From a bacterium (GTDB lineage Bacteria > Electryoneota > Electryoneia > Electryoneales > Electryoneaceae), in the NCBI GenBank assembly GCA_019912845.1, contig JAIOHU010000194.1:38603-102602 (forward strand): DNA of 64,000 nt, written 5' to 3'. A program made the translations under genes and the position numbers. Positions 4,291 to 54,399 of this stretch are shown in pieces. Every line of letters begins with the position of its first letter. Position 1 is the first letter of the stretch. The notes under the pieces are model-generated. The model saw nothing but the letters and a program-made list of their open reading frames with translations, was not told the origin of the DNA and ran no database searches.

Positions 4291-5289
4291 ATGAACATTC
4301 CGTATAAACATGTGAATATTGGTGGTGAAATATTTCGCGTACCAGATTTAGGCAAGATGTTTGGTGGCTGGTGGGTGATTATTCTCATCGTTATTGCACT
4401 CTGGATGGCTAGCGGTATTTATATCGTTGGTCCTGACGAAGAAGGGGTCATACGTACCTTCGGCAAGATGACGAGGATTCATTCGCCGGGCTTGCACTAC
4501 CATTTTCCATATCCTATCGAGCAGGTATTAAAGCCTAAGGTCACGGAAGTAAAACGTATTGAGATAGGATTTCGCAGTAGACGGGGAGGTCAGCCTCTGG
4601 ATGTTCCGGAAGAATCGCTGATGCTCACCGGAGGGCTGAATATCGTCGATATGGATTTCATCGTGCAATATAAAATTCAGGATCCGGTGAAATACTTGTT
4701 CTTCGTGCGTGATGTTCCGACCACCATGCGTATCGCCGCGGAAGCAGTGATTCGCCAGGTTGTTGGAAAACACAAAATTGATGAGGTATTAACAACTGGA
4801 AAAGGTGAGCTTCAGGCTGAAGCATTGCAATCACTGCAATCTATCCTGAACAGTTACGAGATCGGTGTGACGGTCACCCAGATTCAGCTCAAAGATGTCT
4901 GGCCTCCCAATGAGGTCGAGGATGCATTCCGTGAGGTTGCTTCTGCGAAAGAGGACCGTGCACGGTTGATTAATGAAGCACAGGGATATGAAAACAAATT
5001 GATTCCCAAGACGCGCGGTGAAGCGGCTGAGCAGGTTAAACAAGCAGAAGCGTATGCCGCAGAACGTGTCACACGTGCAGAGGGTGATGCAGCTAATTTC
5101 CTCGCAGTGTTGGAGCAGTATAGACGATCACCGAATGTGACAAGGAAACGTATGCTTTTGGAAACACTTGAAATTATTCTCCCGCGATTTAATAAGTATA
5201 TCCTGGACAGCAAAAATGGAGACCTGATAAATGTGGTTGGTTCTTCGCTTGCAAAAGAACCGAGTAGTGTGAAAGGGGGTTCACGATGA
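4291..5289 (+). CDS. hflK: HflK, SPFH/band-7 membrane protease modulator
   Basis: N-terminal transmembrane segment, SPFH domain, Ala/Glu-rich C-terminal coiled coil. Directly followed, with a 4 nt overlap, by an hflC-like paralog. Confidence 0.8.
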   Translation: MNIPYKHVNIGGEIFRVPDLGKMFGGWWVIILIVIALWMASGIYIVGPDEEGVIRTFGKMTRIHSPGLHYHFPYPIEQVLKPKVTEVKRIEIGFRSRRGGQPLDVPEESLMLTGGLNIVDMDFIVQYKIQDPVKYLFFVRDVPTTMRIAAEAVIRQVVGKHKIDEVLTTGKGELQAEALQSLQSILNSYEIGVTVTQIQLKDVWPPNEVEDAFREVASAKEDRARLINEAQGYENKLIPKTRGEAAEQVKQAEAYAAERVTRAEGDAANFLAVLEQYRRSPNVTRKRMLLETLEIILPRFNKYILDSKNGDLINVVGSSLAKEPSSVKGGSR

Positions 5290-6143
5290 CAAAGACCATG
5301 CGAACTCTTATAGGGATAGTAATTGCTGTATTCCTGGTATCACTGGTTACTTATACAGTGGATGAAACCGAGCAGGTTATTATTCTTCAATTTGGTAAAC
5401 CGGTGGGTATGGTGAATAACGCTGGCTTGAAATTCAAGTTGCCGCCACCTTTTAATACGATTGAGCGATTTGAAAAAAGATTGCTCATTTATGATAGCCC
5501 TCCAAACATTGTGGTCACACAAGACAAGAAAAACCTGGTCGTAGATTCGTATGCCAGGTGGCAAATTGTTGATCCATTGCTTTTCCGGCAGACTGTACGT
5601 ACAGAGTCGGGAGCACAGGCTCGTCTCGACGATATTATCTATTCCGATCTTCTCCAGGAATTAGGGCAGCACGAGATGGAAGAAGTTGTAAGTGAAAATC
5701 GTGAAGACATCATGGTAGCTGTTACCAGATATGCAAATGAAAAGGCTAAAGATTTCGGGCTGGAAATCCTGGATGTTCGCATCAAACGTACCGACCTCCC
5801 TCGTGAAAATGAAGATGCTATTTTCCGTAGAATGAGAGCGGAACGGATGCGTATTGCAAATCTCTACCGGTCTGAAGGTGAAGAGGAAGCTCTCAAGATT
5901 CGGGCTGAAGCGGACAAGCAGATTAAAGTTATCATGGCGGATGCTTACAAAGAATCCCAGATTCTTCGCGGTGAAGCAGAGGCCATTGCGGTGAAAACAT
6001 ACGCCGATGCTTTCAACAAGGATCCAGATTTTTACGAATTCTTTAGAACACTTCAGATGTACGAGAACGCTTTAGATGAGAATACAACTCTCGTATTGCC
6101 GCCTGATTCGGAGGTATACAAATACCTGAAATCGAGCAAATGA
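5286..6143 (+). CDS. hflC: HflC, SPFH/band-7 membrane protein
   Basis: N-terminal transmembrane segment and SPFH domain. Paired with the upstream hflK by an ATGA overlap. Confidence 0.8.
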   Translation: MTKTMRTLIGIVIAVFLVSLVTYTVDETEQVIILQFGKPVGMVNNAGLKFKLPPPFNTIERFEKRLLIYDSPPNIVVTQDKKNLVVDSYARWQIVDPLLFRQTVRTESGAQARLDDIIYSDLLQELGQHEMEEVVSENREDIMVAVTRYANEKAKDFGLEILDVRIKRTDLPRENEDAIFRRMRAERMRIANLYRSEGEEEALKIRAEADKQIKVIMADAYKESQILRGEAEAIAVKTYADAFNKDPDFYEFFRTLQMYENALDENTTLVLPPDSEVYKYLKSSK

Positions 6144-8980
6144 ACAATTCGTATATACGAAAATTACGCTGGTTAAATTTTTCCGTCAACCGGTTTGGAA
6201 CATTGCATGGCGATTTTCAGCTTGCACCAGACCGGTTAACGGTATTGCACGGTGAAAATGAAGCGGGTAAAAGTACATTTGTTGCTGCGCTTCTGGCTGT
6301 CTTATACGGTTTATCTGACCAGGAGGCAGGTGTGCGTCCACAAAGGACGCATTTCCTGCCCTGGGAGGGTGACAGTTTTAAGGCTACTCTCGGGTTTGGC
6401 TGGAATGACCGCATTTTCAGGATCGATCGGAACTTCAGGGATCAAACAGTTCATTTGATGACTGAGTCTGGTGAAAATTCCGATCATCTGGTGAGCGAAC
6501 ATGGTAATATGGATGGCATCGGATATCTGCTCACTGGTGGCTTTACACCTGAAGTCTTCATTAAAAGTTTTATCGTACCACAAGAACAGGCTGCCCTGAT
6601 TTCGAGCCCGGGGGAACTGGCAGAAAAAGTCCAAGCATTGACACGGATTTCACCCGGAAGTTCAGCGACTCAATCAGCACGTCAAATTCTCCAAGAGCTT
6701 ATAGGATCAGCAGAAAATTCTGAGGGAGAGGGTACTTCCATTCTCACAGAGAAATATCGCCTCTCCCAAAATATGACGAAGTTACTCGAAGAGCATGCGT
6801 CACTGGTACAGCTCAAGAAAGAAGCAGACCATGTTGTGCGTGATCTGATAGCTCTCGAAAATGAACGAGTAACGCTGAAAACTCGTTTGAAAAGCATTCG
6901 TCGTGGTATTTTACTGAATGAAAAGAAAGACCTTGAATCCCGCCATGATGATATCCTGAATCACACAAAACGTCTTGAGACGCTTCAGGAGGAAGAGGCG
7001 GAATACAAGGATGCCGCACATATCACTTCCAACCTTGAGAAAAAGTTTACCCAGGTTTATGAACGATATCGGGAAGCTGCCGCTACTGCTGAAGGTGCTG
7101 TTCAGGAACGGCAGAAACGGCATGACACGTTTGAATCTGAAAAAGGTAAGATAACAGAATTCTCAAATCTTACTGAATTTGAAATCGAAGAGCTGGATGA
7201 TCTCAGCCAGAATCTTCATCTTTGGAAAAATCTGAACGAAAAACGAGCACGTATTGAAGAGGAATTGGATAAAGAGAAGGAGAACCTGGCAGGACGAGGT
7301 ATCTTTGCCAGACGACTTGAACTTGTTCAGGCGAACTTCCAGATACTTTCGGAAGAAACTCTCCTGGAATATGATCGGCTGGTAGCCGAGCACGATCAAG
7401 CTGAAGCGGAACTAAGGCAAGCTGATGAACGGGTTGCCAAAACCCAACTACCAAAACGAAAAATACGACTGACTCCTTTTGCCATAAGCATCGCATTGAT
7501 TGCGCTGATCGCAGCAATAGGCTCGGCATTGGAGTGGAAACTCGCACAAAATGAACTGGCTGCATTGATGGTTACCAGTGTAGCTGTAATTCTTGTTGTG
7601 GTGCTTGGTGTGCTAGAACATGTAACTTTCCAGCATTCAGCTCGTCAATCCAAACGTGAGCTTTCAGAATCTGAGAAAAAGTTAACCAGGATAGAAAAAA
7701 ATCTCGACTCACTGGCGATTTCAATAAATTTAAAAAATCACGATGAATTACGAAGTTTGCTGTCGGACTCACGCGATCTCTCCGGTGTCGGCAGCAAGTA
7801 TTTTGAGGTTAAAGCAGTCCATGATGATGCGCTTCACGAGCTTGAGTCCGTTGGTGAAAAGATACGTCCCTACCTTGAGGAAGCTGGTGTTATCGGTGAA
7901 GGTGAAATGCCAACCAGGGGCGAAGTGGACGGTTTTGCAGTGCATGTTGCCAATTATCGCAAGGCATTGGAAAAATATCGGTATGTAGAGAATCTTTATA
8001 CGAGTTCATTGGAAGAAGAACGTCGGGCTGCAGACAGAGTGGCTGGCTTCTGGAACGAGTTACAATCGATCTTCACAGAAGCAAAAATCACAGAGCGGGA
8101 AGAAGTTGAACAAGCAGCTAAAGAGTTTAATGTACTGAGTAGCCGTGCTCAACATTACCGAGATATCAGTGAGCAAATCACAACGCTACAGTCTGACGCT
8201 GGCGAAGAGGGAATGCTGAACGCTCTGAAATCCCGCCTTGAGGATACATACCGATACCTTGCCCAATTGGATGATGTAGCTGCAGAACCGGGGACAGTCA
8301 TTCAGCTTCATGAGCTCGAGGAGCAGCTTCAGGACAGACTGCATGAACTGACCCGTGATCTTTCCGATGAACGGGCGCACTTGACTATGCTACAACAGAA
8401 AATTTACCCGGCAATTCATCGTGCTGAACATCAACTAGCTTCAACTCGGAAATTGATGGAAGAAATTGAAATTAAAATCCATGCTCTAACTATTGCCGCA
8501 GATACCTTAAAAAATATAGAGAGCGACGTATTCGATAAGCTCTCGACCATGCTGAACGAAAAACTGCAACCGATTCTCGCTGAACTTGTGCCAAGATGGA
8601 GTGAAGCAACATTTGACAAAGACCTGAACCTGACAGCAAAGGATCGTCAAACAGGAAAAAGCATTTCAGCAGCGAAAGTGCAAAGATTATTGTCTGCAGG
8701 TGCCAGAGATTCGATCTTCCTGGGAGCGAGGTTGGCATTGAGCGACTATCTCGCTGGCGGCTATGTGGATGCACCGTACATCTTCGACGAACCTTTCGCT
8801 CACCTGGATGACAACCGATTCCGTACCGGAATGGATATGCTGATACGTCAGGTGAAAAATGGAAAGCAGGTGATCGTGTTGACCTGCCACAGTGGAAGGC
8901 ACAGAGAGTGGCTGGATCATCTGAACGTTGAGTTAAGGGATTCGGTACAAATGATGGAAATTGAGAGGGAGCTGGCATGA
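6140..8980 (+). CDS. Membrane-anchored Rad50/SbcC-like coiled-coil ATPase (YhaN/SbcE-like)
   Basis: N-terminal P-loop (GENEAGKST) and Q-loop (PQEQ). C-terminal Walker B (YIFDEPFAHLD), H-loop (LTCH) and a degenerate signature (LSAGARD). About 700 aa of coiled coil is interrupted by two hydrophobic helices (AISIALIALIAAIGSAL and LMVTSVAVILVVVLGVL) where a zinc hook would normally sit. 4 nt overlaps with both neighbouring genes. Confidence 0.7.
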   Translation: MNNSYIRKLRWLNFSVNRFGTLHGDFQLAPDRLTVLHGENEAGKSTFVAALLAVLYGLSDQEAGVRPQRTHFLPWEGDSFKATLGFGWNDRIFRIDRNFRDQTVHLMTESGENSDHLVSEHGNMDGIGYLLTGGFTPEVFIKSFIVPQEQAALISSPGELAEKVQALTRISPGSSATQSARQILQELIGSAENSEGEGTSILTEKYRLSQNMTKLLEEHASLVQLKKEADHVVRDLIALENERVTLKTRLKSIRRGILLNEKKDLESRHDDILNHTKRLETLQEEEAEYKDAAHITSNLEKKFTQVYERYREAAATAEGAVQERQKRHDTFESEKGKITEFSNLTEFEIEELDDLSQNLHLWKNLNEKRARIEEELDKEKENLAGRGIFARRLELVQANFQILSEETLLEYDRLVAEHDQAEAELRQADERVAKTQLPKRKIRLTPFAISIALIALIAAIGSALEWKLAQNELAALMVTSVAVILVVVLGVLEHVTFQHSARQSKRELSESEKKLTRIEKNLDSLAISINLKNHDELRSLLSDSRDLSGVGSKYFEVKAVHDDALHELESVGEKIRPYLEEAGVIGEGEMPTRGEVDGFAVHVANYRKALEKYRYVENLYTSSLEEERRAADRVAGFWNELQSIFTEAKITEREEVEQAAKEFNVLSSRAQHYRDISEQITTLQSDAGEEGMLNALKSRLEDTYRYLAQLDDVAAEPGTVIQLHELEEQLQDRLHELTRDLSDERAHLTMLQQKIYPAIHRAEHQLASTRKLMEEIEIKIHALTIAADTLKNIESDVFDKLSTMLNEKLQPILAELVPRWSEATFDKDLNLTAKDRQTGKSISAAKVQRLLSAGARDSIFLGARLALSDYLAGGYVDAPYIFDEPFAHLDDNRFRTGMDMLIRQVKNGKQVIVLTCHSGRHREWLDHLNVELRDSVQMMEIERELA

Positions 8981-10158
8981 GTATTCGTATACTTCAGGCT
9001 TCTGGTCTCAAGCTGGGTGCACCAGTGCTGCCATCAGGACACGGCTTTAGTGAGGATATCGTACGTCAACGCGAAGCTCTCCAGAATAGCCTGCTGAGCA
9101 GAATCGTAACAATTGCACAGGATCAAAATGTTGATTTATTGATCCTTAATGGTGATTTATTCGATTTTTCATCATTTTGCCTTCCAACAATACGTTCAGT
9201 TATCTCCACCCTTAACACTATTCAGGAGACGGCAGTTGTTATTGTTCCTGGTGTGTCGGACAACTTGAGCGAACTAAGCCCTTACAAGGATATTGTGTCA
9301 ACTGCCCTCGGATTAAATTGGGGAGAACATCGTCATATCTTAAGCGATGTACGGTATTCTAACCTCAGTATCGAAACACTCCCCGACCTTATGATTTCAT
9401 TCTATTCTGATGCTGAGAGTACTATTTTTGAATCACAACCTGCCCCCGTTGAAGGAAAGATAAACATTCTGGTTTGCCCAAGTGCAGGGAATGGCAAGGT
9501 AGATTTAAATCAATATAACAAAGCGGGTTTCCAGTGGGTTATCGTTTCCGGGAGTGGATACGAAGAGGTCTTCTCAAATGAGACTGGTGACGTTCTTGCA
9601 GTAGATTCCGGTGAAGTCTTCCAGAACAGTTTTGAGCATCCTGGGAGTGGGAAAGTGGCGGTGTATGAAGTAGATGAAAATGGGATCAAGAAAGACACCC
9701 TCGATTATCACACAATCGATCCGACAAAATTGTTAACCATTCAGGTCGATCTTCCCCTCGAATATGATGATCAGACTATAGATGATATCATTAAAACGCA
9801 GATTGAAAAGCTGGACGTCACATTTGAAGATATCTTATGGATAAAATTCACAGGGAAACATATTGAAGGTCCTTTCGCTCGCTTTGAAATAAATCAATCA
9901 TTGAACTGTAATGCGTTTTTTATCGATACGAGTTCTGTTGAATTCCCTGGATTGGAAAAGATTGCTGTAATGGGGGATGTCATTCCTGAGATTGCCGAAC
10001 GTTTTCAACTCGCTCTGGAACTTAAGCTGGAAAAAGCCGGCTTAGCCGAATCTGAAAAAGTTGCCTTGCGAACCCTGGCATATCAGTATGGGATATCAGC
10101 TCTACGGGGAAAAACCCCTTATCCCTTTGGGGAAAGTAGTAAAAAGAGCACCGATTAA
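8977..10158 (+). CDS. Mre11/SbcD-like calcineurin-fold phosphoesterase with degenerate metal-binding motifs (YhaO/SbcF-like, probably inactive)
   Basis: The N-terminus is collinear with SbcD, but motif I reads ILQASGLKLG where SbcD has ILHTSDWHLG. Motif II GDLFD is retained. Motif III is GVSD instead of GNHD. Translationally coupled to the ATPase. Confidence 0.55.
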   Translation: MSIRILQASGLKLGAPVLPSGHGFSEDIVRQREALQNSLLSRIVTIAQDQNVDLLILNGDLFDFSSFCLPTIRSVISTLNTIQETAVVIVPGVSDNLSELSPYKDIVSTALGLNWGEHRHILSDVRYSNLSIETLPDLMISFYSDAESTIFESQPAPVEGKINILVCPSAGNGKVDLNQYNKAGFQWVIVSGSGYEEVFSNETGDVLAVDSGEVFQNSFEHPGSGKVAVYEVDENGIKKDTLDYHTIDPTKLLTIQVDLPLEYDDQTIDDIIKTQIEKLDVTFEDILWIKFTGKHIEGPFARFEINQSLNCNAFFIDTSSVEFPGLEKIAVMGDVIPEIAERFQLALELKLEKAGLAESEKVALRTLAYQYGISALRGKTPYPFGESSKKSTD

Positions 10159-10257
10159 GAAGAAGAAATCATTTGGATTCGTTAACACGGTTTTGCACGC
10201 TGAACAATACCTTCTAATTTGATTATTAAACTTCAAGTGCAGGAATAAATTACAATT

Positions 10258-11016
10258 ATGATGAGCAATGAGCCAACATCTCTTCCCGATTCAGGAAGCA
10301 CACCAACATCCAAACTCAAACAAATAAGACAGTGGTTCCTGACCGGTCTGGTCTTCCTTGGTCCTTTGGTTTTGACGATCTGGATTGTCATAAAACTGTT
10401 TCTGCTCACAGACAGTATACTTGGTAAACCAATCCGCCTTTTTCTCGCAGAAGTATTGGACCTTCAGTATTTCAAAGAGGGGACGATTTATGGAATTGGC
10501 TTTTTTGTTTTAATGGGAATCATTTTGTTAGCGGGATGGTTTGCACGTCAATACCTCGGAGTTCGGGTTGCGGGTGTCATCAAATCAACGGTGCAGAGAA
10601 TTCCGTTGGTGAACAAAGTTTACCTCGCGATCTTTCAGATATCCGAAGCGTTACTCGGTGGTCAAAAGGAAGTATTCAAGCAGGCTGTTTTGATAGAATA
10701 TCCACGTAAAGGAACTTACTGCATTGGATTTATGACACAGGATACTCGCGGTCCCATTCAAGATGCCATAAAAGAAGATGTAATCAGTATATTTTTACCC
10801 ACTACTCCAAATCCAACTTCTGGATTCCTTTTGTTTTATCCCAAGACAGATGTGGTACTGTTGCACGTGTCAGTTGCTGAAGCGCTCAAACTTATCATTT
10901 CTGCAGGTGCTGTTGTACCTGAATCACAACGTGGGAGACCTGTTACTGCCAGCCAGGCTGGAATTATTTTTGATCCGCCCGGTTCACCTCCCAATGACAA
11001 GGAGGGGAAGGCGTGA
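10258..11016 (+). CDS. DUF502 family inner-membrane protein
   Basis: Two N-terminal transmembrane helices and the conserved PTTPNPTSGFLL motif typical of DUF502/COG2928. Confidence 0.7.
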   Translation: MMSNEPTSLPDSGSTPTSKLKQIRQWFLTGLVFLGPLVLTIWIVIKLFLLTDSILGKPIRLFLAEVLDLQYFKEGTIYGIGFFVLMGIILLAGWFARQYLGVRVAGVIKSTVQRIPLVNKVYLAIFQISEALLGGQKEVFKQAVLIEYPRKGTYCIGFMTQDTRGPIQDAIKEDVISIFLPTTPNPTSGFLLFYPKTDVVLLHVSVAEALKLIISAGAVVPESQRGRPVTASQAGIIFDPPGSPPNDKEGKA

Positions 11017-12860
11017 GGAGAAGTAGGTTTAGACTACTACTCAACCTGCTTTTACTTATCTTCTCAACCGCAACAGCGGCAAATGATTCACTTTATACCC
11101 GTTTCAGCCAGGAACTGGATACACGTATTTTACAGACCAGAGGCAATTACTCAGTATCAGATTCCACCCTTCACCTCCAATCAAGTGCCTACAGTAAGAT
11201 AACCCTGCGTCAGCTTCCTGGATTTGAACCACAATGGAAACGAGACCTCGGGCTGTCGCTCACTTCCACCAGATTTCTATCCCGGAATTTTGATCTTCTT
11301 TTTGAACTTGAAGGCAGTAATTTTCAGGATCAGGAAGCTCCGGAAAGAGTGCAGAAAGGCGGTGTCTCGCTGCATCCTTATGATCTCCGTCCACTCACTG
11401 ATGGTTCACGTCTGGTGACCGGTCAGAACAGTAAAATTACACGGGGTGTCTTGCGTGGAGGAGTATCATACAACCGATCAACGACCCTGCGAAGTACAAT
11501 GCTGGTGGGAGGAGCGTACGATGAGGAGCTGAAAGGTTCAGGTTCCGGTCCATCCATGCGAGGTGATTTTAAACTCCGTCCAATTGATGACCAGAATATC
11601 CAATTCGGCGGGAACGGTTATATCAATTTGTATGACGACCGACGATATCATGATCTCACATTAGATAATTCAATCGTTCGTGATTTTGGTGATGCAACTG
11701 ACCTTTTTGAAGCAAGCTGGCGCAATCGAAGAAGCGATATTTACCTGGGGCTGGAGGGAAATATCGTCAGTCGTGTACATGATGAACTCAGCTTGAGGAA
11801 TCGTCTCAGCACTCCTTTGAGTGAGGACATGAATGGGGTTTACGACCTTGATTTTCGTCGGTCTAATGTCTCCTATCGTGGTGTTGGTCCTGGTGAAAGC
11901 AGGGAGAATGATCTGGTACATCGTCTCGCCTGGATTTATGCACCATCAATCTGGCAGACCATGCTGCAATACAATTTTGCCGTTGAGGATCGGGACTATG
12001 GCGGCACCTTGACGCTGGGAAGAAGGCAGGAGCTGGAGTTGATTACATCCCGAAATAGCGACAAAGACAGCCTGACAGTAAAACTGGGCACAGAAAAACG
12101 ACGTTATGACTCCCCCGACAGCCTTGAAACCAATGACAGAGATCGCCTGGTTCATCATGCTGAGCTGGTTGGTGGGAGATGGCTGACCCCCTGGGTCTAC
12201 ACAGCAGTTGAAATTTCAGTAATACTTGACCATCTTGTATACATTAAGCAGGAACGTTCAGCGGACAATCACTGGAATCGCGTTATCGCATTACGACCTA
12301 TTGTACAATGGTTTCCTGCTGACGGATGGAACAACACAGCTTCTTTTGAAGTTTTAGCTAACTACAGCGTATATGATTTTGAGAGCATGGATGCACGCTC
12401 CGGGATTCGTAGTCGGGTGTTTAGAAGATGGTCTGCTGCCGACACTCTGACCCTCCCCCTGGGAGGACGTGTTCAATTGTCTCTATCCGGACGATATGAT
12501 CTTGAGGAACGGGGAAGGATTATCTGGGATGATTTTGTCCAGGACCTTTCCGACAAAGCCCGGGTGGGATTCGCTGCCACTCACCTTGAATATATATTTC
12601 TCTCAAGACTTCTCTTGAAAATTGGTTACCGTTATCAGAAACGAGTGGAAGAAAGCTTTGAACAAAGCGATATTGTTTTGCAGCAAAATCAGACAGATCG
12701 AACTTATATCAAACGAGGTCCCTCGCTTCGAGTACAAACCTTGTTCAACAGATCATGGCGATTGCTGGTAGATGGAGATTTTCAAACGATTGATGACAAC
12801 CAACGTGAATCTACTGAAACCCTTAATACGGTTTACGTCACCCTTGTTTACCAGTGGTAG
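11013..12860 (+). CDS. Secreted outer-membrane beta-barrel protein, hypothetical
   Basis: Signal peptide (LLLNLLLLIFSTATAAND). Alternating beta-strand-like pattern. C-terminal aromatic residue (YQW). 4 nt overlap with the DUF502 gene. Confidence 0.5.
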   Translation: MRRSRFRLLLNLLLLIFSTATAANDSLYTRFSQELDTRILQTRGNYSVSDSTLHLQSSAYSKITLRQLPGFEPQWKRDLGLSLTSTRFLSRNFDLLFELEGSNFQDQEAPERVQKGGVSLHPYDLRPLTDGSRLVTGQNSKITRGVLRGGVSYNRSTTLRSTMLVGGAYDEELKGSGSGPSMRGDFKLRPIDDQNIQFGGNGYINLYDDRRYHDLTLDNSIVRDFGDATDLFEASWRNRRSDIYLGLEGNIVSRVHDELSLRNRLSTPLSEDMNGVYDLDFRRSNVSYRGVGPGESRENDLVHRLAWIYAPSIWQTMLQYNFAVEDRDYGGTLTLGRRQELELITSRNSDKDSLTVKLGTEKRRYDSPDSLETNDRDRLVHHAELVGGRWLTPWVYTAVEISVILDHLVYIKQERSADNHWNRVIALRPIVQWFPADGWNNTASFEVLANYSVYDFESMDARSGIRSRVFRRWSAADTLTLPLGGRVQLSLSGRYDLEERGRIIWDDFVQDLSDKARVGFAATHLEYIFLSRLLLKIGYRYQKRVEESFEQSDIVLQQNQTDRTYIKRGPSLRVQTLFNRSWRLLVDGDFQTIDDNQRESTETLNTVYVTLVYQW

Positions 12861-12867
12861 ATCAAAC

Positions 12868-14229
12868 TTGCTCCGCGCTCTATCCCAGCTAAGCTATGCA
12901 CTAATTCTCGTTCTCTTTATTCCCTGCATCTCTTCCGCACAATCCACTCCCGCGGTTATTGATACCATCATCATAGAAGGCAATCGCACGACAAAATCGT
13001 TTGTCATTCTCAGCGAAATGAAGTTAAGCTCGGGAATGGTTGCAACACCTGAGTTGATCGATCAGGACAAGCAACGCTTGGAATCATTAGGATTATTCAG
13101 CCGTGTAGAACTCTATCCTGGAACTATCGGTAATGAACAGGCATTAATTGTCGAAGTCACTGAGCTCTGGTATATCTGGCCTGGTATCTACCTCGAAATT
13201 GATGAAGAAGAAATTGAAAATCTGCAACGAACCGCGTATGGTGGTCATATCAATCACGATAATTTCCGTGGAAGACGTGAACACCTTTCCCTGATCGGGT
13301 TTACCGGCTACCGACGTGGTGGGCAGGCTCGTTGGAAAATCCCCTATCTGTTTTCCACAAGAGAGTGGGGTATGAATGTTGAGATGAAGTGGATGGAGGA
13401 GGATGAACCTGGGATTCTGGCAGAACGTGAGGATATAACCTCGCTGTCACGTTCACTTAGAGCCAGCCTGGGAAGAAGACTAAATCTGGAATCCAGCTAC
13501 TCGATCAGCAGTTCCATCGAAGAGCGTCAGTTTTACGAACGAAATGTTGAGAATGGCAGTGAATATGTTGAGCCGGATACAGACAACGATATTCTTTTCG
13601 AGCTGACCGGTGGTTACCACTATGATACACGCTATTATAACCCCTGGCCTACACAGGGGGTCAACCTCGATATCTCCTTTAGCGTTTCAAATAGTCTGAA
13701 CAGTGGAGATGTTTTATATGTCCGTCCCCTGCTTTCGCTCTCGGCGTACAAATTGGTCGCTCCACGGATTTATCTGGCTGGCAGAATTTACAGTCTGGCG
13801 ACTTTTGGCAGCTCTCCGGTTTTTCGTCGCTACATCATCAACAGACTGAAATCTGTGCGAACCTCAGCAGAACGGAGTCTGGAAGGGGATCGTGCTCTGT
13901 TGCTGCAGTCAGAAGTACGATATGACATCATCGATCGAACCTATCTAACCCTCTGGGCACCGTGGAAACTGCAACGTTACACCCGTAACCTCAAATTTGG
14001 TGTTTCCGTTGCAACCTTTGTTGACTATGGTGTCGTAGATGGTGTACACGGTATATATGATCCAGCGAATAAGCCAGACCGTTATTATGCGGGGTGGGAA
14101 GCGGCGTACGGCGCGGCATTGGTCTTTCATGTGCCCTATCGGGATATCATAAGATTCGAAGTATCTCGAAGCGCACGTTTTCCCGACAGTGGTTACCTTT
14201 TCAAGCTTCGGATTGGACCTGCTTTTTAG
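12868..14229 (+). CDS. Omp85/BamA-superfamily outer-membrane protein with a single POTRA domain
   Basis: POTRA-like segment (IIIEGNRTTKSFVILSEMKLSSGMV...LESLGLFSRVEL) followed by a beta-barrel region. The proposed TTG start at 12868 places the signal peptide (LRALSQLSYALILVLFIPCISSAQ) at the N-terminus. The ATG at 12772 would put 58 aa ahead of the signal peptide. Confidence 0.55.
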   Translation: MLRALSQLSYALILVLFIPCISSAQSTPAVIDTIIIEGNRTTKSFVILSEMKLSSGMVATPELIDQDKQRLESLGLFSRVELYPGTIGNEQALIVEVTELWYIWPGIYLEIDEEEIENLQRTAYGGHINHDNFRGRREHLSLIGFTGYRRGGQARWKIPYLFSTREWGMNVEMKWMEEDEPGILAEREDITSLSRSLRASLGRRLNLESSYSISSSIEERQFYERNVENGSEYVEPDTDNDILFELTGGYHYDTRYYNPWPTQGVNLDISFSVSNSLNSGDVLYVRPLLSLSAYKLVAPRIYLAGRIYSLATFGSSPVFRRYIINRLKSVRTSAERSLEGDRALLLQSEVRYDIIDRTYLTLWAPWKLQRYTRNLKFGVSVATFVDYGVVDGVHGIYDPANKPDRYYAGWEAAYGAALVFHVPYRDIIRFEVSRSARFPDSGYLFKLRIGPAF

Positions 14230-14410
14230 TTCATACTGGAGCGCCACACTCCAGTGTGGCAATTTCTTTGGCTTTTGACAAGTCCAAATTCAACCATCAA
14301 ACCATGCAAGTTGTTCCCCAAGCGGTGTTTTAGGGTCTTCTAAACTCCAAGAAATCCATAGTTTTATAGGTTTTTGCGTTGCCACGAACGGTTTAACCCT
14401 CACTGCTAAT

Positions 14411-14641
14411 TTACAGAAAACTGTTCAAAACATCTGTGCTCATATCAGCTTGGTGAAGTATGCTTTTCAGGGTTCCTTTTTTCAAGTCTTTATTGTGATA
14501 TGGAACGGTAACTGTAAGTTCTGGTCGTTCTGGATGAACCAGAGAGATGTGACTGCCTTGCTGATAGTCAACCTCAAACCCAGCTTTTCTAAGGGCACGA
14601 AGTAATTGTCTTGGTGTGATAACGGGAAGTTTTGGACTCAT
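14411..14641 (-). CDS. hicA: HicA toxin (YcfA-like mRNA interferase)
   Basis: 76 aa with PRQLLRALRKAGFEV...QGSHISLVHP, the hallmark of HicA/YcfA. Confidence 0.8.
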   Translation of the reverse strand: MSPKLPVITPRQLLRALRKAGFEVDYQQGSHISLVHPERPELTVTVPYHNKDLKKGTLKSILHQADMSTDVLNSFL

Positions 14642-14644
14642 CTC

Positions 14645-14881
14645 CTACACCGCCACTGCCAACTTATCGCGTAGTGGCATAGATTCTTGTATATCTTCAG
14701 GTATGGGTAATCCCCGTTTTATTAGTGATGCAATATGGCAACGGATTGCATCTTTTGCCATCTCTTTTGCTTCATCAAGGGTATCCCCTTCGGTGACCAG
14801 TCCCGGCAACGCAGGAATCGTGACAATATATCCGCCTTCCTCTGCCAGTTCAAAGATCGCCGTATATTCCTTTTCTACCAT
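14645..14881 (-). CDS. hicB: HicB-type antitoxin (UPF0150 fold, no DNA-binding extension)
   Basis: 78 aa, YTAIFE...EEGGYIVTIPALPGLVTEGDTLDEAKEMAKDAI pattern of HicB. Lies 3 nt upstream of hicA on the same strand. Confidence 0.7.
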   Translation of the reverse strand: MVEKEYTAIFELAEEGGYIVTIPALPGLVTEGDTLDEAKEMAKDAIRCHIASLIKRGLPIPEDIQESMPLRDKLAVAV

Positions 14882-15460: not shown

Positions 15461-15833
15461 ATTTATTTCCCGCAATTCATTGAATTTGTCACAATAGTAG
15501 TGGTATATATTAATGTAGAAACCAACTCGTGTGAAGTGTTCGTTCTGGTACGGGTAACTATTAGGGGGAAATCTTCTTTGTCTTCTATGAAAGGGGCTGA
15601 CACGCCCCTTTCGATCCCCAAAATGATCCAATCGGGTATTTTTGCTAAGATATTTAACGGGAATAAGCGCGATACCTGTAGCAAGCTACAGGTCATCCGT
15701 CGCGAATATTTAATTCGTTGAATGATATAGGATTTATATAAACAAGCCATTGACTTTATTGTGGATCAAGAGTAAACTATTTACAAGATTGCAAAGGATT
15801 ATTGGAATCAGTTATTATTTGCGGGGGTATTTT

Positions 15834-18800
15834 ATGAATCGGATCAAAAGAATATTCACAGTGATCTGCATCCTATTATCATTTGGCAGTAGTATGGCGC
15901 AGGATAGTCTGAACATTAGCATGCTGGGTAGTTTATACAACAATTGGGATCTATCTGCTGATCTTTTTATCGTCGATACTTTGGTGTTTATCGCAACAAC
16001 TGGTAGTGGTTTAAGGATTTTAGACATCCGTAATCCTGGTTCTCTTAATGAGCTTGGTTTTTGTTATACGCCGAGCAATGCCTACGATGTCGCAGTTGCT
16101 GGTGAATATGCATATATCGCAGATGGAAGCGAAGGGCTTTGTGTTGTTAACGTGAGTGATCTGGAAAATCCAGTAGTCGTTGGTTCATTCGATGAACCCG
16201 AGTGGGTTGAAGGTGTGGCAGTTCATGGAGGGTATGCTTACCTGACAGATTTTTATCAAGGAATGTGGATAGTTGATATCAGTGATCCGCAGAATCCTTT
16301 TCAGGTTAGCTATATAATTTCCCCCGATCATTCGCAGGATATCGCAGTTGTTGAAGATTACGCCTATGTCGCCATCTGGGATGAGGGATTATGGATAGTT
16401 GATATCAGTGATCCGGAAAACCCTGAAGAAGTTGCAACCCTCAGAACCCGTGATTCAGCTCGGGATGTTACTGTGTTTGACGGTTTTGCTTACATAGCTG
16501 ATAACGAAGCGGGTCTCTTTATCGCTGATGTAACTGATCCCGAAAATCCCATCGAAGTTGGCTCCTATGATACTCATGGTCGTACCAGAGGTGTAGCTGT
16601 CACAGAGAACTACTCATTTATCGCAGACAGTCGGGGAATGCGAGTGATTGATATCACCCAGTTGGAAAACCCTCTGGAGGTCGGATTTTACGATTCAATG
16701 TCTCGTACCACCAGCCTTGTCATCTCAGATTGGATCGCTTTTATTTCTGATGAGGTTGGTGGCCTTCGAGTTGTTAATGTACACGATCCTGAACAACCCA
16801 TTGAAATAGGCAGTTATGACACACCAGCATGGGCACGAGAGGTAGTGGTACAGGGAGAATATGCTTTTATCGCGCATGATGAAGGTGGGCTTCGAGTAGT
16901 TGATATAAGGAATGGAGAGAATCTGTTCGAAGCAGCATTCCTCACTTTTCGTCGACCAGCAATGAATATTGATTTGCAGGGGGATTACGTATATGTGGGT
17001 ACTTCTGATTGGGAGCGGGAAGAAGGCGGTCTTAGAATTGTCGATATCAGCAACCCAGTTGCACCTGATGAAACTGCTTTTTTCGATCTAGAAGAGGTGG
17101 TCAGTGATCTTGCAGTTTCAGAAGGGATCGCATTTGTCGCTACAAATGAAACTGATCTTCATATCTTGGATGTATCTGATCCCGAAAATCCATCAGAAAT
17201 CAGCCAACTTTACCTGCAGGGAAATGCTAGCAGTGTTGCAGTTGAAGGAAATTTTGCTTACGTCGTAGCTGCTGGTCTCAGGGTGGTTGATGTAGGCGAC
17301 ATTCAAAATCCTGTCGAAGTAGGGTTTTACAATCCGGTTGGCAACAATATTAGACATGTTGCTGTTTCGGGAGATATAGCTTACATTGCTGAGAGAGGTC
17401 TCAAAGTATTAGATGTCAGTAATCCAGAAAACCTCGTCGAAATTGGGGCGTTCAACGCACCAGGATCAATCCGGAATATTACTGTTGTAGACAGTTATGT
17501 GTTTGTCGCTTATTCCTGGAAACTTAGCACATCCGGTGGATGTCTACGTGTGATTGATGTCAGTGACCCAACACACCCAGAACAAACGGGATTTTACAAA
17601 ACTCCAGGTATTGCAAACAATGTTTGTGCCGTAAACCAGTTCGCTTATGTGGCGGATTCCTACCATTTTGAAGTTTATGACTGTTCCTATGCAATTGATT
17701 GGCCGGATACTGCCAGTGTATCTGGAATCGTAATTGATGAAGAAACCAGTGAGGTTATCTCCGGAGCTGTAGTGTCTTTCGATGAACATCAAACTTCCAC
17801 AAATGAAAATGGTGAATACAACTTCACCCTCCTTTCTCCTGATAATTATTCTGTAGATGCTTATGCTCTGGACTACGAACCATTTCATGCTGGAAGAGTA
17901 CAGCTTGAATCTGGGGAGAACACTTATAATTTTTCTATGCGAAAGAATGAAAGTTTAAATATCGAAATCCTCTCGATGATCGAGTCTCACTACTACAACG
18001 AAGCTGTGGCAATCGAAGGCGATTTTGCATATGTGGCGGATCAGGATTCAGGATTACGCGTTATTGATGTTTCTGATCCGCAATTCCCAAGAGAAATTGG
18101 TTTTTTTCCCGCAAATGACGCATTTCGCGGTGTCGTTGTGTCAAATGGTTACGCTTATCTTGCTGACCACGGAGCAGGATTTCGTATTGCTGATGTCAGT
18201 GATCCAGAAATTCCTGTTGCAGCAGGATCTCTTGCCACGCCAAACCGAGCAAATAAAGTCGTCGTAGAGGGAGATTATGCATACATAGCAAATACCTATG
18301 ACGGTTTGCGTATTGTCAATGTGAGTGATGCGGCAAATCCTGTGGAAATAGGTGTCTGCAATACACCTGACTGTGCGCTTGATGTAGTAGTCGGGGAAGG
18401 TTTCGCGTATATCGCGGATTATAATGAAGGTTTACGGGTGATCGATATTCATGATCCAGCAATTCCGGTTGAAATCGGCTATTTTACAACAGATGATGAA
18501 TGCGCAATTTGCGTTACTGTTGATGGGAATTATGCCTATGTTGGATATGGTATGGATGGGCTTCGCGTCCTTGATATTAGAAATCCGGCTAACCCTGTAG
18601 AAATTAGCCATTATCAAACACCGGGTCGTGTCTACTGCATCAAAGTTGTTGAAAACTTTGCTTTTATTGCTGATTTTTACGATGGATTAAGAGTGCTCGA
18701 TATCAGCGATCCCACCAATATTGCAGAAACAGGTTTTTATAATACGCCAGGAACAGCCCAATGGGTCGAAATTGAAGGTAACCTTGCGTATGTCGCTGAT

Positions 18801-19151
18801 CGAAATCACCTCGAAATTTTCGACTGTTCAAACGCTATGATTGAGAACATTGCACCAAACATTGATGAAATAAGTTTACCACATGATTTTTTTGTCAGCA
18901 ATGCTTACCCAAATCCTTTTAACAGTACAGTAACTGTTACTGTTGGATTGTCCGAAAACGGAATGATTACGTTACGTCTTTTTAATATCCTTGGACAGGT
19001 AAAGTTTGAATCAACACAGAGATTCAACGCTGGATATCATCGTTTGAGTCTTGACGATGAACAGACTTTTGACGTTGTGAGTGGGATCTATTTCCTGCAG
19101 GTGCAGGTTGGTGGAGTGAACGAAGTGCAGAAGGTGATTTTGTTGAGGTAG
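15834..19151 (+). CDS. T9SS cargo protein: two LVIVD-repeat beta-propellers separated by a CarboxypepD_reg-like domain, T9SS C-terminal sorting domain
   Basis: Signal peptide, then ~20 repeats of the LVIVD motif (GLRVIDISDPENPVEVG). A CarbopepD_reg-like segment (SGIVIDEETSEVISGAVVSF...ENGEYNF). C-terminal domain YPNPFNSTVTVTV...IYFLQVQVGG...KVILLR. The first ATG after the long leader is 15834. Confidence 0.8.
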   Translation: MNRIKRIFTVICILLSFGSSMAQDSLNISMLGSLYNNWDLSADLFIVDTLVFIATTGSGLRILDIRNPGSLNELGFCYTPSNAYDVAVAGEYAYIADGSEGLCVVNVSDLENPVVVGSFDEPEWVEGVAVHGGYAYLTDFYQGMWIVDISDPQNPFQVSYIISPDHSQDIAVVEDYAYVAIWDEGLWIVDISDPENPEEVATLRTRDSARDVTVFDGFAYIADNEAGLFIADVTDPENPIEVGSYDTHGRTRGVAVTENYSFIADSRGMRVIDITQLENPLEVGFYDSMSRTTSLVISDWIAFISDEVGGLRVVNVHDPEQPIEIGSYDTPAWAREVVVQGEYAFIAHDEGGLRVVDIRNGENLFEAAFLTFRRPAMNIDLQGDYVYVGTSDWEREEGGLRIVDISNPVAPDETAFFDLEEVVSDLAVSEGIAFVATNETDLHILDVSDPENPSEISQLYLQGNASSVAVEGNFAYVVAAGLRVVDVGDIQNPVEVGFYNPVGNNIRHVAVSGDIAYIAERGLKVLDVSNPENLVEIGAFNAPGSIRNITVVDSYVFVAYSWKLSTSGGCLRVIDVSDPTHPEQTGFYKTPGIANNVCAVNQFAYVADSYHFEVYDCSYAIDWPDTASVSGIVIDEETSEVISGAVVSFDEHQTSTNENGEYNFTLLSPDNYSVDAYALDYEPFHAGRVQLESGENTYNFSMRKNESLNIEILSMIESHYYNEAVAIEGDFAYVADQDSGLRVIDVSDPQFPREIGFFPANDAFRGVVVSNGYAYLADHGAGFRIADVSDPEIPVAAGSLATPNRANKVVVEGDYAYIANTYDGLRIVNVSDAANPVEIGVCNTPDCALDVVVGEGFAYIADYNEGLRVIDIHDPAIPVEIGYFTTDDECAICVTVDGNYAYVGYGMDGLRVLDIRNPANPVEISHYQTPGRVYCIKVVENFAFIADFYDGLRVLDISDPTNIAETGFYNTPGTAQWVEIEGNLAYVADRNHLEIFDCSNAMIENIAPNIDEISLPHDFFVSNAYPNPFNSTVTVTVGLSENGMITLRLFNILGQVKFESTQRFNAGYHRLSLDDEQTFDVVSGIYFLQVQVGGVNEVQKVILLR

Positions 19152-19600: not shown

Positions 19601-19777
19601 CGAGGCATAAAGTATGTAAACTTGAAATTATAGTCCATTTACTTGCTGTTACATTGATATTGTTCTAAATTGTACTCTAATGTGTCAGCGAAATACCTGG
19701 GGGTTGATTAAGGCTGTCAGTAATACTCCCTGCCCCGTTTTCGTTCATTTGGATACCTTACGGAATTGGAGTCCATC

Positions 19778-21919
19778 ATGATCTATCCTACTCGAAAAAT
19801 CCTGTTTACCATCTTCTGCCTCACTTCCCTTCTTATAAGTTCAACACTGCTTTTCGCACAGGAAGGCATAGAGCTGTTGTCAACCATTGAGAATGAATCG
19901 TGGGAACGTGTCTGGGATGTTACCTACGAGGACAATTTGCTGTATGTATGTGCCGCATCGGAAGGTATGTTTATTTATAATGTTGAGGATCTGGAAAACC
20001 CCGAATTATTGGGTGAGTTCACCACCGGAGCGACAATGAGGCAGGTGACAATCAAATCTGAATATGCCTATATCGCTGCCGCCAGTCAGGGGATGTATGT
20101 TGTGGATATCAGCACACCCACCAATCCCGTGTTGCGTTCTCAACTTGAAATCGACGAATTCACCTGGACAATTGATGTTCATGGCAACATGGCGTATGCC
20201 ACCGAGTTCGGTGATATCTATGCGATTGATATTTCCGACCCGGACGACCCGGAAATTCTATCTGTCATTGATGCACGTTGCTGTCAGAGGAAGGCACTGA
20301 TCAGGGATGGAATCTCTTACTCGCCATCCGAAAATTGGGGTTTCCAAACCATTGATGTTTCCGACATTTTCAATCCTGTTCAACTGGACATGGAACGTGA
20401 GTACAGTGGGACAGCGTATGATGTAGCGTTGCAGGGGGACTATGCTTATGTCGCATATGCACGACAAGGCATTCTCGTGTACGACATTTCCGATCCGTCA
20501 GATATCTTTGTCGCCGGACGAACCTGGGAATATAACAACATTTTCGGGATAGATGTTCAGGATGGGTATGCTTACTTTACCAATAGTTCAAATGGTATAT
20601 CTGTGCTGGATATCAGCAATCCTGTTGATCCTGCACCAGTCGGATCACATGATGTTGAGGGTGTAATATACGGACTCGCCATAAATCCACCCTATGCATT
20701 CATACCTGCAGGAAACACTGTATCAATCTTTGATTGTTCGGAAGCGATCGGTTATGATGACCAGGAAGAGGTAAACATCCCTCTTGCAACAAATCGTTAC
20801 GAACTGGTTTCCATGCCTCGTCTCCCCTTAGACCTCTTCGCAATCAACTTGTTCGAAGATATCCCCCATCTTGCTATCGTACAAAACGAGCAGGGGCAGG
20901 TTCATATACCTGACCTGATCGACGCCGATTGGATGGTGAATCCTACCGAAGCCTACATGATTTATACAAGCGAAGAGAGCGAATGGGTCTATACAGGTAC
21001 AACCATCCGTGCCGACCATGAGTTCAACCTCCAACCTGATACCTGGAATTGGATTGGCTATCCCTTCACTGACGAAATGCTGGTAGAACAAGCGATGGAA
21101 CCGATTTATGATGAGCTGGAAATTATTCTCAATGATGACGGTGAGATTTTCATTCCTGATCCGGATTTTAACATCAACACCATGGGGAATATGACACCCG
21201 GCGAAGGTTATCGTGTCTTTGTAAATGAGGAAGTCGACCTGGAGTATCCAGAGGAACTCGAACGTGCCGGAGCTTTTACAACGGAAAAATGGAATATCCC
21301 TGAAATTGAAGATACTCCTCATGCGACAGGTTTGCCCTGGGTTGTCCTGGTGACGCTGGACGAAAGTATGAAACAGCAGGCAGCGGTTATCGAACTCTAT
21401 GACGGCAACGTTTTGGTCGGCAGAGCTGCTGTGCTCGAAGACAAACCGGTCACGCCGGTAACAGCATGGCAGGCGATCCCGGAGCATGATATTCCAGGCT
21501 TTTTCCCCGGAAATCCGATCAGTGTGAAAGTGTTGGATGAAAGCGGTGAAGTCGTTGGTGAATCAGGGAGTGCAAACGTCAGCTCATCAGCTTTTGGTAA
21601 AGGTCCTTATGCTGAAATCACGGTATCTGCAATCGAGAATGAATCTGAACTCCCACTCGAACTTTCCATGGGCAAAGCCTATCCGAACCCGTTTAATCCG
21701 TCGATCACTGTTCCATTTACCCTGCCGGAAAAAATGGAAGTCAGTTTGAGTTTATACAATATCGTTGGGCAGCTGGTAGCGGAATTGAACCAGGGAGTGC
21801 TGGATCGAGGTCACCATGAATTGGTCTTCGAAGCTGTGAACCAGACTTCCGGTGTCTATTTCCTCGTCTTGAAAGCTGGCGAACATCACGCCATGCAGAA
21901 GGTGATTTTGTTGAAGTAG
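19778..21919 (+). CDS. T9SS cargo protein: N-terminal LVIVD beta-propeller, non-propeller C-terminal half, T9SS C-terminal domain
   Basis: Signal peptide plus LVIVD repeats, then a domain shared with the C-terminal half of the 51153-54188 protein. C-terminal domain AYPNPFNPSITVPFTLPEKM...VYFLVLKAGEHHAMQKVILLK. ATG at 19778; the listed ORF uses an upstream TTG at 19766. Confidence 0.8.
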   Translation: MIYPTRKILFTIFCLTSLLISSTLLFAQEGIELLSTIENESWERVWDVTYEDNLLYVCAASEGMFIYNVEDLENPELLGEFTTGATMRQVTIKSEYAYIAAASQGMYVVDISTPTNPVLRSQLEIDEFTWTIDVHGNMAYATEFGDIYAIDISDPDDPEILSVIDARCCQRKALIRDGISYSPSENWGFQTIDVSDIFNPVQLDMEREYSGTAYDVALQGDYAYVAYARQGILVYDISDPSDIFVAGRTWEYNNIFGIDVQDGYAYFTNSSNGISVLDISNPVDPAPVGSHDVEGVIYGLAINPPYAFIPAGNTVSIFDCSEAIGYDDQEEVNIPLATNRYELVSMPRLPLDLFAINLFEDIPHLAIVQNEQGQVHIPDLIDADWMVNPTEAYMIYTSEESEWVYTGTTIRADHEFNLQPDTWNWIGYPFTDEMLVEQAMEPIYDELEIILNDDGEIFIPDPDFNINTMGNMTPGEGYRVFVNEEVDLEYPEELERAGAFTTEKWNIPEIEDTPHATGLPWVVLVTLDESMKQQAAVIELYDGNVLVGRAAVLEDKPVTPVTAWQAIPEHDIPGFFPGNPISVKVLDESGEVVGESGSANVSSSAFGKGPYAEITVSAIENESELPLELSMGKAYPNPFNPSITVPFTLPEKMEVSLSLYNIVGQLVAELNQGVLDRGHHELVFEAVNQTSGVYFLVLKAGEHHAMQKVILLK

Positions 21920-27500: not shown

Positions 27501-28053
27501 GCCAGCAATTATTGCGTCCTATGCTGTACCAGGCATATCAACCAATGTGTTTCTTGAAAATGGAGTTCTCTACCTTGCATCACAGTTTGCCGGTTTACGA
27601 ATTATTGATATAGAGGATCCTGAAAATCTGCATGAGAGCGGATACTACACGACTGAAGGGAATGCATTGGCAGTAGCGGCTCGAGAAGAATTCGCCTATG
27701 TCGCTGCGGGTGAATTTCTCGAAATTTACGATTGTTCCAGCGCGCTTGGCTGGAATCCTGTGCAAAACCGAACTGATCTTGTCCCACCTTCTACAATCGC
27801 TCTGGAGCCAGCCTATCCGAACCCGTTTAATCCGTCGATCACTGTGCCATTTACCCTGCCGGAAAAGATGGATGTACGTTTGAGACTGTACAATATCATC
27901 GGGCAGCAGGTGGCTGAATTAAATCAGGGAGTGCTGGATCGAGGTCACCATGAATTGGTCTTCGAAGCTGTGAACCAGACTTCCGGTGTTTATTTCATCG
28001 TGTTGGAAGCGGGTGAACATCAAGCCATGCAGAAGGTGATACTGCTAAAATAG
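24501..28053 (+). pseudogene. T9SS cargo LVIVD-propeller gene (~1180 aa if joined) interrupted by a +1 frameshift in an A4 run at 25400-25403
   Basis: ORF 24501-25424 (signal peptide plus first propeller) and ORF 25381-28053 (CarbopepD_reg, propeller, CarbopepD_reg, propeller, C-terminal domain) join seamlessly if one A is removed. The joined protein has the paralog pattern TPGxAxx...AYVADxxxxxIFDCSDA. The joined architecture matches the 15834-19151 paralog. Confidence 0.6.
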
Positions 28054-54188: not shown

Positions 54189-54399
54189 GTCCGAATCCTC
54201 TAAGTAGCAAGAGTTGGTCAAGGTGCGACTTACATCAGATTACATTATTAGCAATCAGTTTGCAAATGAATTCATGTCACTTTCTAAAAATCTCGCAAGA
54301 AGTCTCTCAGGGAAAGGACGCCAGGTGAGGAAAATACTGGATTTCCCCTTGAGAAAATCAAAAAAATAACGATACCTTTAGCGTTTGGAATTTGTGGAC

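Follow-up and report, generated by a model that had tools for sequence, protein, structure and literature searches.

In the 64,000-nucleotide (64-kb) stretch of bacterial DNA analyzed here (the window; contig JAIOHU010000194.1 of assembly GCA_019912845.1), the gene at 8977..10158 on the + strand encodes a 393-amino-acid protein of the Mre11/SbcD fold (YhaO/SbcF-like) with a degenerate active site, referred to below as the window phosphoesterase (PDE). The interpretation favored here, with a probability of about 0.6, is that of a pseudo-nuclease kept as a structural subunit: the dimetal site was lost in one lineage and the fold was kept. By synteny, the window PDE is orthologous to Mre11/SbcD-like phosphoesterases of the YhaO/SbcF type that are otherwise active, and we infer that nuclease activity is absent from it. 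The product of the open reading frame (ORF) is identical to NCBI MBZ0265340.1, which is annotated as 'hypothetical protein K8I28_11810 [bacterium]'. The ORF starts with the ATG of an ATGA in which it overlaps the stop codon of the preceding ATPase gene, and the sequence AGGGAG just 5' of this ATG resembles a Shine-Dalgarno site. The Pfam model PF00149 (Metallophos) matches the window PDE with 15.2 bits (E=0.03) at amino acids (aa) 44-106 only, which is below the gathering threshold of 21.5 bits; the orthologue at locus L001 reaches 48.4 bits. TIGR00619 (SbcD) gives 22.9 bits (E=6e-5) against a cut-off of 77.65. The intact orthologues, at 38-42 bits, likewise score under this cut-off, which indicates that the subfamily as a whole is distinct from SbcD. 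Judged by TIGR00619 and NF008206, the window PDE is not a canonical SbcD. A phmmer search against the PDB returned marginal SbcD/Mre11 matches only, at aa 28-108, and a profile search for a family name gave no match labelled YhaO. In annotation, the window PDE should not carry an exonuclease label. Membership in a defence system was also considered and was rejected, because the PADLOC defence-system models gave no meaningful match to the PDE (best E=0.004) and matched the neighboring ATPase through generic SMC-head similarity only (mad3 4e-11, LmuB 2e-10).

The catalytic positions were compared in a family alignment of 66 sequences, which were representatives obtained by an exhaustive HMMER search. 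At the eight positions, intact members have DHDNHHHH, whereas the window PDE has GKDVSPGG. Seven of them are gone, corresponding to six of the seven metal ligands and the catalytic histidine, and Asp60 of motif II is the sole surviving ligand. In the remnant of motif I (ASGLKLG, aa 8-14; 8998..9018, + strand) the ligand aspartate is replaced by Gly10 and the ligand histidine by Lys12, at a site where all eight orthologues carry SD[WLF]H[LF]G. Motif II (GDLFD, aa 59-63; 9151..9165, + strand) retains Asp60, and the subfamily shows no variation at its residues G59, D60, L61 and D63. The remnant of motif III (GVSD, aa 92-95; 9250..9261, + strand) contains Val93 instead of the ligand asparagine and Ser94 instead of the catalytic histidine. 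The equivalent of this histidine in P. furiosus Mre11, His85, is essential for nuclease activity (PMC4996933). At the site of motif IV (LVCPSA, aa 165-170; 9469..9486, + strand) the FHGS...TAPF of the orthologues is missing due to a deletion of about 14 residues, and no histidine is present; the ligand histidine falls in the deletion in the orthologue alignment or pairs with Pro168 in the family alignment. Finally, SGSG (aa 191-194; 9547..9558, + strand) replaces the GHYH of motif V/VI, and both ligand histidines are lost.

The register of these motifs is supported by several alignments. BLASTP aligned the window PDE over its full length with the orthologue at L001:4144-5403 (25% identity, E=4e-41) and paired SGLKLG with SDWHFG, GDLFD with GDLWD and PGVSD with PGNHD. 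The full ORF of this orthologue, which is longer than its original gene call, begins MIKVLQTSDWHFG. The subfamily profile matched Mre11 of T. maritima (2q8u) with E=2.8e-15, with SDWHLG, GDL, GNHD and GHIH (motifs I, II, III and V) in register. The initial annotation had read ASGLKLG and GVSD by eye as degenerate motifs I and III of an SbcD/Mre11 relative in which only GDLFD survives. Both sites were placed correctly with respect to the canonical motifs, and GDLFD remains the only survivor across all eight catalytic positions. The relation to SbcD/Mre11 is borne out by the match to 2q8u and by the predicted fold described below, and the loss of metal ligands is wider than had been noted, as it includes motif IV (by deletion) and motif V/VI (SGSG). 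When the calcineurin-fold motifs were aligned, as had been suggested, the ligands were not found present but offset: a mere offset was rejected, since the pairwise, profile-to-PDB and family alignments are all in register. Motifs hidden by a frameshift or an assembly error were rejected as well, because translation of the three forward frames of 8977-10158 revealed no GNHD, DxH or GHxH, and the other frames are full of stops. Directly after motif I, the segment VLPSGHGF (aa 17-24; window 9025-9048), which represents the LPxGHGF segment typical of the subfamily, is fully kept.

The fold was predicted with AlphaFold2 (AF2) on the basis of the 66-sequence alignment. The model of the window PDE (pLDDT 84.9, pTM 0.81) is made up of a phosphoesterase domain and a capping-like beta domain, with a linker of low confidence and a pair of helices at the C-terminus. 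In a Foldseek search against the PDB the top 50 matches were all Mre11/SbcD structures (probability 1.00, E 3e-12 to 5e-10), with target-normalised TM values of 0.39-0.65. They originate from T. maritima, M. jannaschii, P. furiosus, E. coli, S. aureus and human and include the Mre11-Rad50 structures 3qg5, 3tho and 6s6v. Thus, given the confident model and these matches, the window PDE is predicted to be an Mre11/SbcD-fold protein without an Mre11/SbcD active site. According to the secondary structure of the AF2 model, the C-terminal helix pair (aa 337-353 and 358-376; 9985..10104, + strand) occupies the position of the Rad50-binding helix-loop-helix of Mre11/SbcD. It is through this helix pair that Mre11/SbcD proteins attach to the base of the coiled coil of Rad50/SbcC.

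Orthologues were located via the partner gene. A search with the partner ATPase led to the contig of its one full-length relative and subsequently to a scan of GTDB genomes, which yielded eight loci. As the gene order is the same at these eight loci, their phosphoesterases are orthologues by synteny. The order hflK-hflC-ATPase-PDE-DUF502-615aa-Omp85 is shared by the window and the related Candidatus (Ca.) Electryoneota-like loci, which derive from metagenome-assembled genomes (MAGs). Each of the eight syntenic orthologues keeps all eight catalytic positions. Due to the singleton status of the window PDE, a relative-rate test and a simulation of neutral drift were used in place of the ratio of non-synonymous to synonymous substitution rates (dN/dS). 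The tip branch of the window relative to the others has a ratio of 2.99 for the PDE, 1.34 for the ATPase and 0.92-1.07 for the five flanking genes. A corresponding pattern was obtained for identity, where the window-to-others value divided by the value among the others is 0.57 for the PDE (25.0% vs 43.5%) and 0.88 for the ATPase. For HflK, HflC, DUF502, the 615-aa protein and Omp85 this ratio is 0.97-1.03, so that these proteins show no excess divergence in the window. As the flanking genes are near 1 and the PDE is near 3, constraint has shifted specifically on the PDE gene. In a neighbor-joining tree the window PDE forms a long branch that is pulled beside the degenerate family member P0087. 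This placement was read as long-branch attraction and set aside, and orthology was for this reason based on the seven-gene synteny. Close relatives of the window PDE were not retrieved from about 15 billion proteins or from JGI metagenome contigs: a word-indexed search returned only the protein itself, an exhaustive HMMER search gave nothing above 33% identity, the JGI contigs gave none, and neither this genome nor a sister was present in the GTDB genome scan.

The acceleration is specific to the PDE gene and is not accompanied by decay of the ORF, and three results argue that the protein is still maintained. When an orthologous gene was allowed to drift neutrally to 60-35% amino-acid identity, 0 of 300 ORFs stayed open and on average 8-13 stops accumulated, but all 393 codons of the window PDE are open and its ORF is intact. 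Among the columns that are identical in at least seven of the eight orthologues, 42 of 105 are kept in the window PDE. In aa 1-34 this holds for 11 of 13 conserved columns, and the two exceptions coincide with the two metal ligands (1/78 if the losses were random). At the other end of the protein, F343, A368, G372 and A375 of the C-terminal helices are kept. A368 and G372 are near-invariant over the 66 family sequences, and A375 and F343 are near-invariant in a 20-sequence alignment.

The partner gene (6140..8980, + strand) encodes a YhaN/SbcE-like SMC-family ATPase of 946 aa. It matches the Pfam models AAA_27 (30.8 bits, cut-off 22) and AAA_23 (35.8 bits, cut-off 27). In an alignment with eight orthologues all ABC/SMC motifs are intact, including Walker A (GENEAGKST, aa 38-46), the signature (LSAGARD, aa 851), Walker B (IFDEP, aa 881) and the H-loop (TCH, aa 915-917), and the Q-loop glutamine and the D-loop are also kept. 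The tightly coupled operon reported in the initial annotation was therefore found again, as the ATGA overlap links the PDE to an ATPase with a complete set of motifs. A CxxC hook is absent from the whole ATPase sequence, which contains one cysteine only. Hydropathy and alignment indicate a central hydrophobic hairpin instead (aa ~446-497; 7475..7630, + strand), in which a short loop connects two segments predicted to span the membrane. A proline preceding the hairpin is conserved in eight of nine aligned ATPases, the window included, and is missing in L003. By these sequence features the partner is not a canonical SbcC but YhaN/SbcE-like, with a predicted transmembrane hairpin in place of the zinc hook. 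Within the ATPase the N-terminal head lobe (aa ~60-240; nucleotides (nt) ~6317-6859) shows 22-37% identity to the consensus vs 58-70% among orthologues, and the C-terminal head, unlike this diverged lobe, is well conserved. The divergence of the N-terminal lobe may represent co-adaptation with the altered partner.

Degenerate sites are not restricted to the window. They occur in about 16 of the 66 cluster representatives of the family, a value that is not an unbiased frequency because the search query itself is degenerate, and they comprise scattered cases and one deep clade (P0032, P0047, P0092, P0033, P0052, P0053, P0061, P0042, P0062, P0040 and P0080). Members of this clade resemble the window PDE in that they are YhaO-like and have lost most ligands. 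However, their loss is independent and older: they keep the motif I aspartate and have GN[LF] in motif II, their genes are ordered PDE then ATPase with no hflKC nearby, and in two of their loci the ATPase motifs are also lost, whereas the window has the ATPase first, hflKC linkage and intact ATPase motifs. In all cases where the contig of a degenerate member was read (six proteins on seven contigs), its gene lies immediately upstream of a large partner ORF, whose start is overlapped by the stop of the dead PDE by 4-11 nt. These partners contain an AAA_27 match or a GKST P-loop in L004, L078, L079 and L080; the GKST P-loop is kept in L004 and L078, and Walker B also in L004. At L076 (354-3954) and L077 (6001-9539) both partners are degenerate, and the large protein lacks Walker A and B but keeps the central hydrophobic segment. 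Judged by their sequences, these two pairs seem to be versions of the complex in which neither subunit is an enzyme.

In Thermoanaerobaculia a dead pair is located in the arrangement tgt-yajC-[pair]-secDF (L079 5001-8908 and L080 1427-5481), and its ATPase is of the AAA_27 type. Between the two variants of this locus the dN/dS of the dead PDE is 0.17 (8 non-synonymous vs 20 synonymous codon changes), and the same comparison gave 0.055 for the ATPase and 0.05 for yajC. Purifying selection thus acts on one dead member, and the window PDE may plausibly be read in the same way. The dS of SecD at this locus is 0.69, far above that of its neighbors, and suggests recombination or a different allele there. 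A membrane-related context common to all dead members was not found. The P0032/P0033 lineage adjoins a thiolase gene, and the hflKC and yajC-secDF contexts may therefore be coincidental.

The structural or regulatory role that the initial annotation had suggested for the PDE is thus supported by the rate acceleration with an open ORF, the N- and C-terminal retention, the dead relatives and the dN/dS of one of them, although we still infer this role indirectly. The window PDE would form a complex with the upstream ATPase, as the subunit without catalytic activity. If this complex resembles Mre11-Rad50/SbcCD and SbcE-SbcF, a PDE dimer would hold two ATPase heads via the C-terminal helix-loop-helix. 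The hairpin, which would be positioned at the tip of the coiled coil, may anchor the ATPase in the inner membrane according to the predicted topology. Homology suggests that the ATPase would still bind and hydrolyze ATP and thereby drive engagement of the heads. Because the ATPase is presumably anchored and ATP-competent while the dimetal site of the PDE is lost, the complex could clamp or tether its substrate, which may or may not be DNA, without cleaving it.

Several observations weigh against a maintained pseudo-nuclease. Only one of the eight catalytic positions is kept vs 42 of the 105 conserved columns overall, a difference that is not significant alone (binomial P ~0.1). As the catalytic loss is no more extreme than that at other conserved columns, general relaxation is part of the picture. 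Past aa 100 the identity to the orthologue consensus is only 11-35%, and the window PDE has suffered the 14-residue deletion. In addition, the window lineage is a singleton that was sampled once (one MAG), the confidence of the AF2 model leans on an alignment of intact homologues, and the binding of the window PDE to the ATPase is deduced by analogy. The main rival explanation is a gene in late relaxation, whose nuclease became dispensable (perhaps covered by another one), whose constraint was relaxed and whose still undisrupted ORF is a remnant with little or no function. The low identity past aa 100 and the removal of motif IV by the deletion would fit such a gene, as would the 3-fold longer tip branch and the mild acceleration of the ATPase (1.34x), and in a singleton lineage with no relatives showing persistence a very recent loss of all function is conceivable. 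However, a relic of this kind is difficult to reconcile with the drift simulation, in which none of the 300 runs left the ORF open (mean 8-13 stops), with the lack of any stop in 393 codons next to other frames full of stops, and with the selective retention of fold and interface residues. The ATGA coupling and the Shine-Dalgarno-like sequence are also intact, and a dead relative elsewhere is under purifying selection (dN/dS 0.17). Progressive gene loss is therefore considered unlikely.

Two further explanations assume that the protein is functional, but in a different manner. The dead subunit might be a regulator that restrains or redirects the ATPase, or it might enter mixed complexes with an active paralogue from another part of the genome. 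The contig is at least 104 kb long, so that a canonical sbcCD or a further copy may be present outside the 64-kb window, and the divergence of ATPase aa 60-240 could reflect co-adaptation with the changed partner. However, no second Mre11/SbcD-like gene or SMC-like ATPase was detected among the scanned large ORFs of the window, and genes coupled 1:1 at the level of translation usually encode obligate partner subunits. A regulatory function is considered improbable. Still less credible is an altered enzyme, i.e. a hydrolase that works with one metal or with none, or a protein that binds phosphorylated ligands, either of which would use Asp60, Asp63 and Asp95 together with Lys12 and Ser94. The three aspartates are invariant and retained, and the ligand replacements are not all inert, as Lys12 and Ser94 are polar. 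In contrast, six of seven metal ligands and the catalytic histidine are gone, the motif IV loop is deleted, and other dead members carry different replacements at these positions, which speaks against convergence on a new active site. We know of no calcineurin-fold enzyme that works with such a site.

The pseudo-nuclease and its partner can be compared with three known systems. The B. subtilis protein SbcE/YhaN is SbcC-like but has no CxxC, and its central domain, which is unique, hydrophobic and insoluble, contains a conserved proline (Krishnamurthy et al. 2010, PMC2811018). SbcE/YhaN is reported to interact in the yeast two-hybrid system with SbcF (YhaO), the product of the neighboring SbcD-like gene sbcF/yhaO (PMC2811018). 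The window pair shares with YhaO/SbcF and YhaN/SbcE the adjacency of an SbcD-like phosphoesterase and an SMC-like ATPase with an AAA_27 head, and its ATPase has the same long coiled coils, the lack of a CxxC hook and the hydrophobic central domain with a conserved proline. It differs from them by the inverted gene order, the junction to hflK-hflC and the loss of seven of eight catalytic positions in the PDE. Adjacency, the ATPase features and the published description make the YhaO/SbcF-YhaN/SbcE type the best family match of the window pair. The resemblance to E. coli SbcCD and Mre11-Rad50 includes the fold of the nuclease subunit (phosphoesterase, capping domain and C-terminal helix pair), an ABC/SMC-type coiled-coil ATPase partner and translationally coupled genes. 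In contrast to these systems, where the dimetal site is essential, the window PDE lacks it, and the ATPase has a predicted membrane hairpin and no zinc hook.

The closest conceptual precedent for a structural, dead Mre11-like domain is the B-subunit of eukaryotic DNA polymerases, in which the Mre11-like PDE domain has lost all catalytic residues and is structural (PMC4996933). As proposed for the window PDE, the B-subunits of Pol alpha, delta and epsilon keep a dead calcineurin/Mre11-like fold beside an active enzyme. However, their partner is a polymerase rather than an SMC-like ATPase, an OB domain is present, and their inactivation is ancient and clade-wide, whereas the loss in the window is confined to one tip of a subfamily that is otherwise active. 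Literature searches with incomplete journal coverage turned up neither a naturally dead Mre11/SbcD/YhaO partner nor a connection between YhaN-type ATPases and HflKC. On these subjects and on membrane-anchored SMC-like proteins, they gave nothing relevant apart from the SbcE paper and the PolD/B-subunit paper.

The dimetal site is the defining feature of Mre11/SbcD nucleases, whose activity is abolished when a single ligand is mutated. An orthologue that lacks nearly the whole site but is still paired with an intact ATPase would represent a natural separation-of-function allele and would suggest that the ATPase-scaffold function of the complex is selectable without cutting. On a more speculative level, YhaN/YhaO complexes might be SMC-like machines embedded in the membrane that perform their central task without cleaving DNA, a task that perhaps concerns membrane-protein biogenesis or quality control, not double-strand-break repair. 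We regard this generalization as doubtful. If true, it would explain why the nuclease site, and sometimes the ATPase site, is repeatedly lost in gene pairs that remain under selection, and why the pair occurs in an hflK-hflC operon (Ca. Electryoneota-like) and a dead pair between yajC and secDF; the window PDE would then be a snapshot of that transition. The recurrent dead versions, and the location of the pair in two lineages within operons devoted to quality control of membrane proteins or to secretion (hflKC and yajC-secDF), raise the question of whether this widespread, barely studied fourth bacterial SMC-like system is a DNA-repair nuclease.

The pair is embedded in the seven-gene cluster, which spans 4291-14259 (+ strand) in the window and is also present at L001, L003, L005, L008, L009 and L010; synteny of hflKC with the ATPase/PDE pair was observed in six related loci. 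Upstream of the ATPase gene are hflK (4291-5289, + strand; TIGR01933 265 bits, cut-off 159) and hflC (5286-6143, + strand; TIGR01932 219 bits, cut-off 134), and overlaps of 4 nt join the hflK, hflC, ATPase and PDE genes. Among the family loci compared, the order ATPase then PDE and the linkage to hflKC occur only in the Ca. Electryoneota-like lineage, of which Ca. Electryonea clarkiae (FCB group) is the nearest named genome. Acidobacteriota, Verrucomicrobiota, Armatimonadota and many Clostridia have the PDE gene ahead of the ATPase gene and no hflKC beside the pair. Downstream of the PDE gene, a DUF502 gene (10258-11016, + strand) and an Omp85/POTRA gene (12772-14229, + strand) are conserved. 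Between them, a gene at 11013-12860 (+ strand) encodes a 615-aa protein that has no Pfam or NCBIfam match and shows 35-46% identity in all eight related loci. The listed Omp85 ORF overlaps the 615-aa gene by about 90 nt, and its true start may therefore lie further downstream. The link of these downstream genes with the ATPase/PDE pair is one of synteny. The first terminator-like hairpin past the PDE gene that is located outside coding sequence is found at 14231-14259 (+ strand); the terminator scan also revealed a weaker + strand hairpin at 10949-10961, inside the DUF502 gene.

Just past the cluster, at 14411-14881 on the - strand, there is a gene pair for a HicA toxin of 76 aa (Pfam E=1.8e-21) and a HicB-like antitoxin of 78 aa (E=6.5e-11). 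The window further contains six genes for large LVIVD-repeat/beta-propeller proteins with Por_Secre_tail, i.e. type IX secretion C-terminal sorting domains, at 15750-19151, 19766-21919, 22032-24200, 25381-28053 and 46538-48745 on the + strand and at 51153-54221 on the - strand. A seventh Por_Secre_tail protein is encoded at 37301-38827, and the presence of seven such proteins is consistent with an organism of the FCB group.

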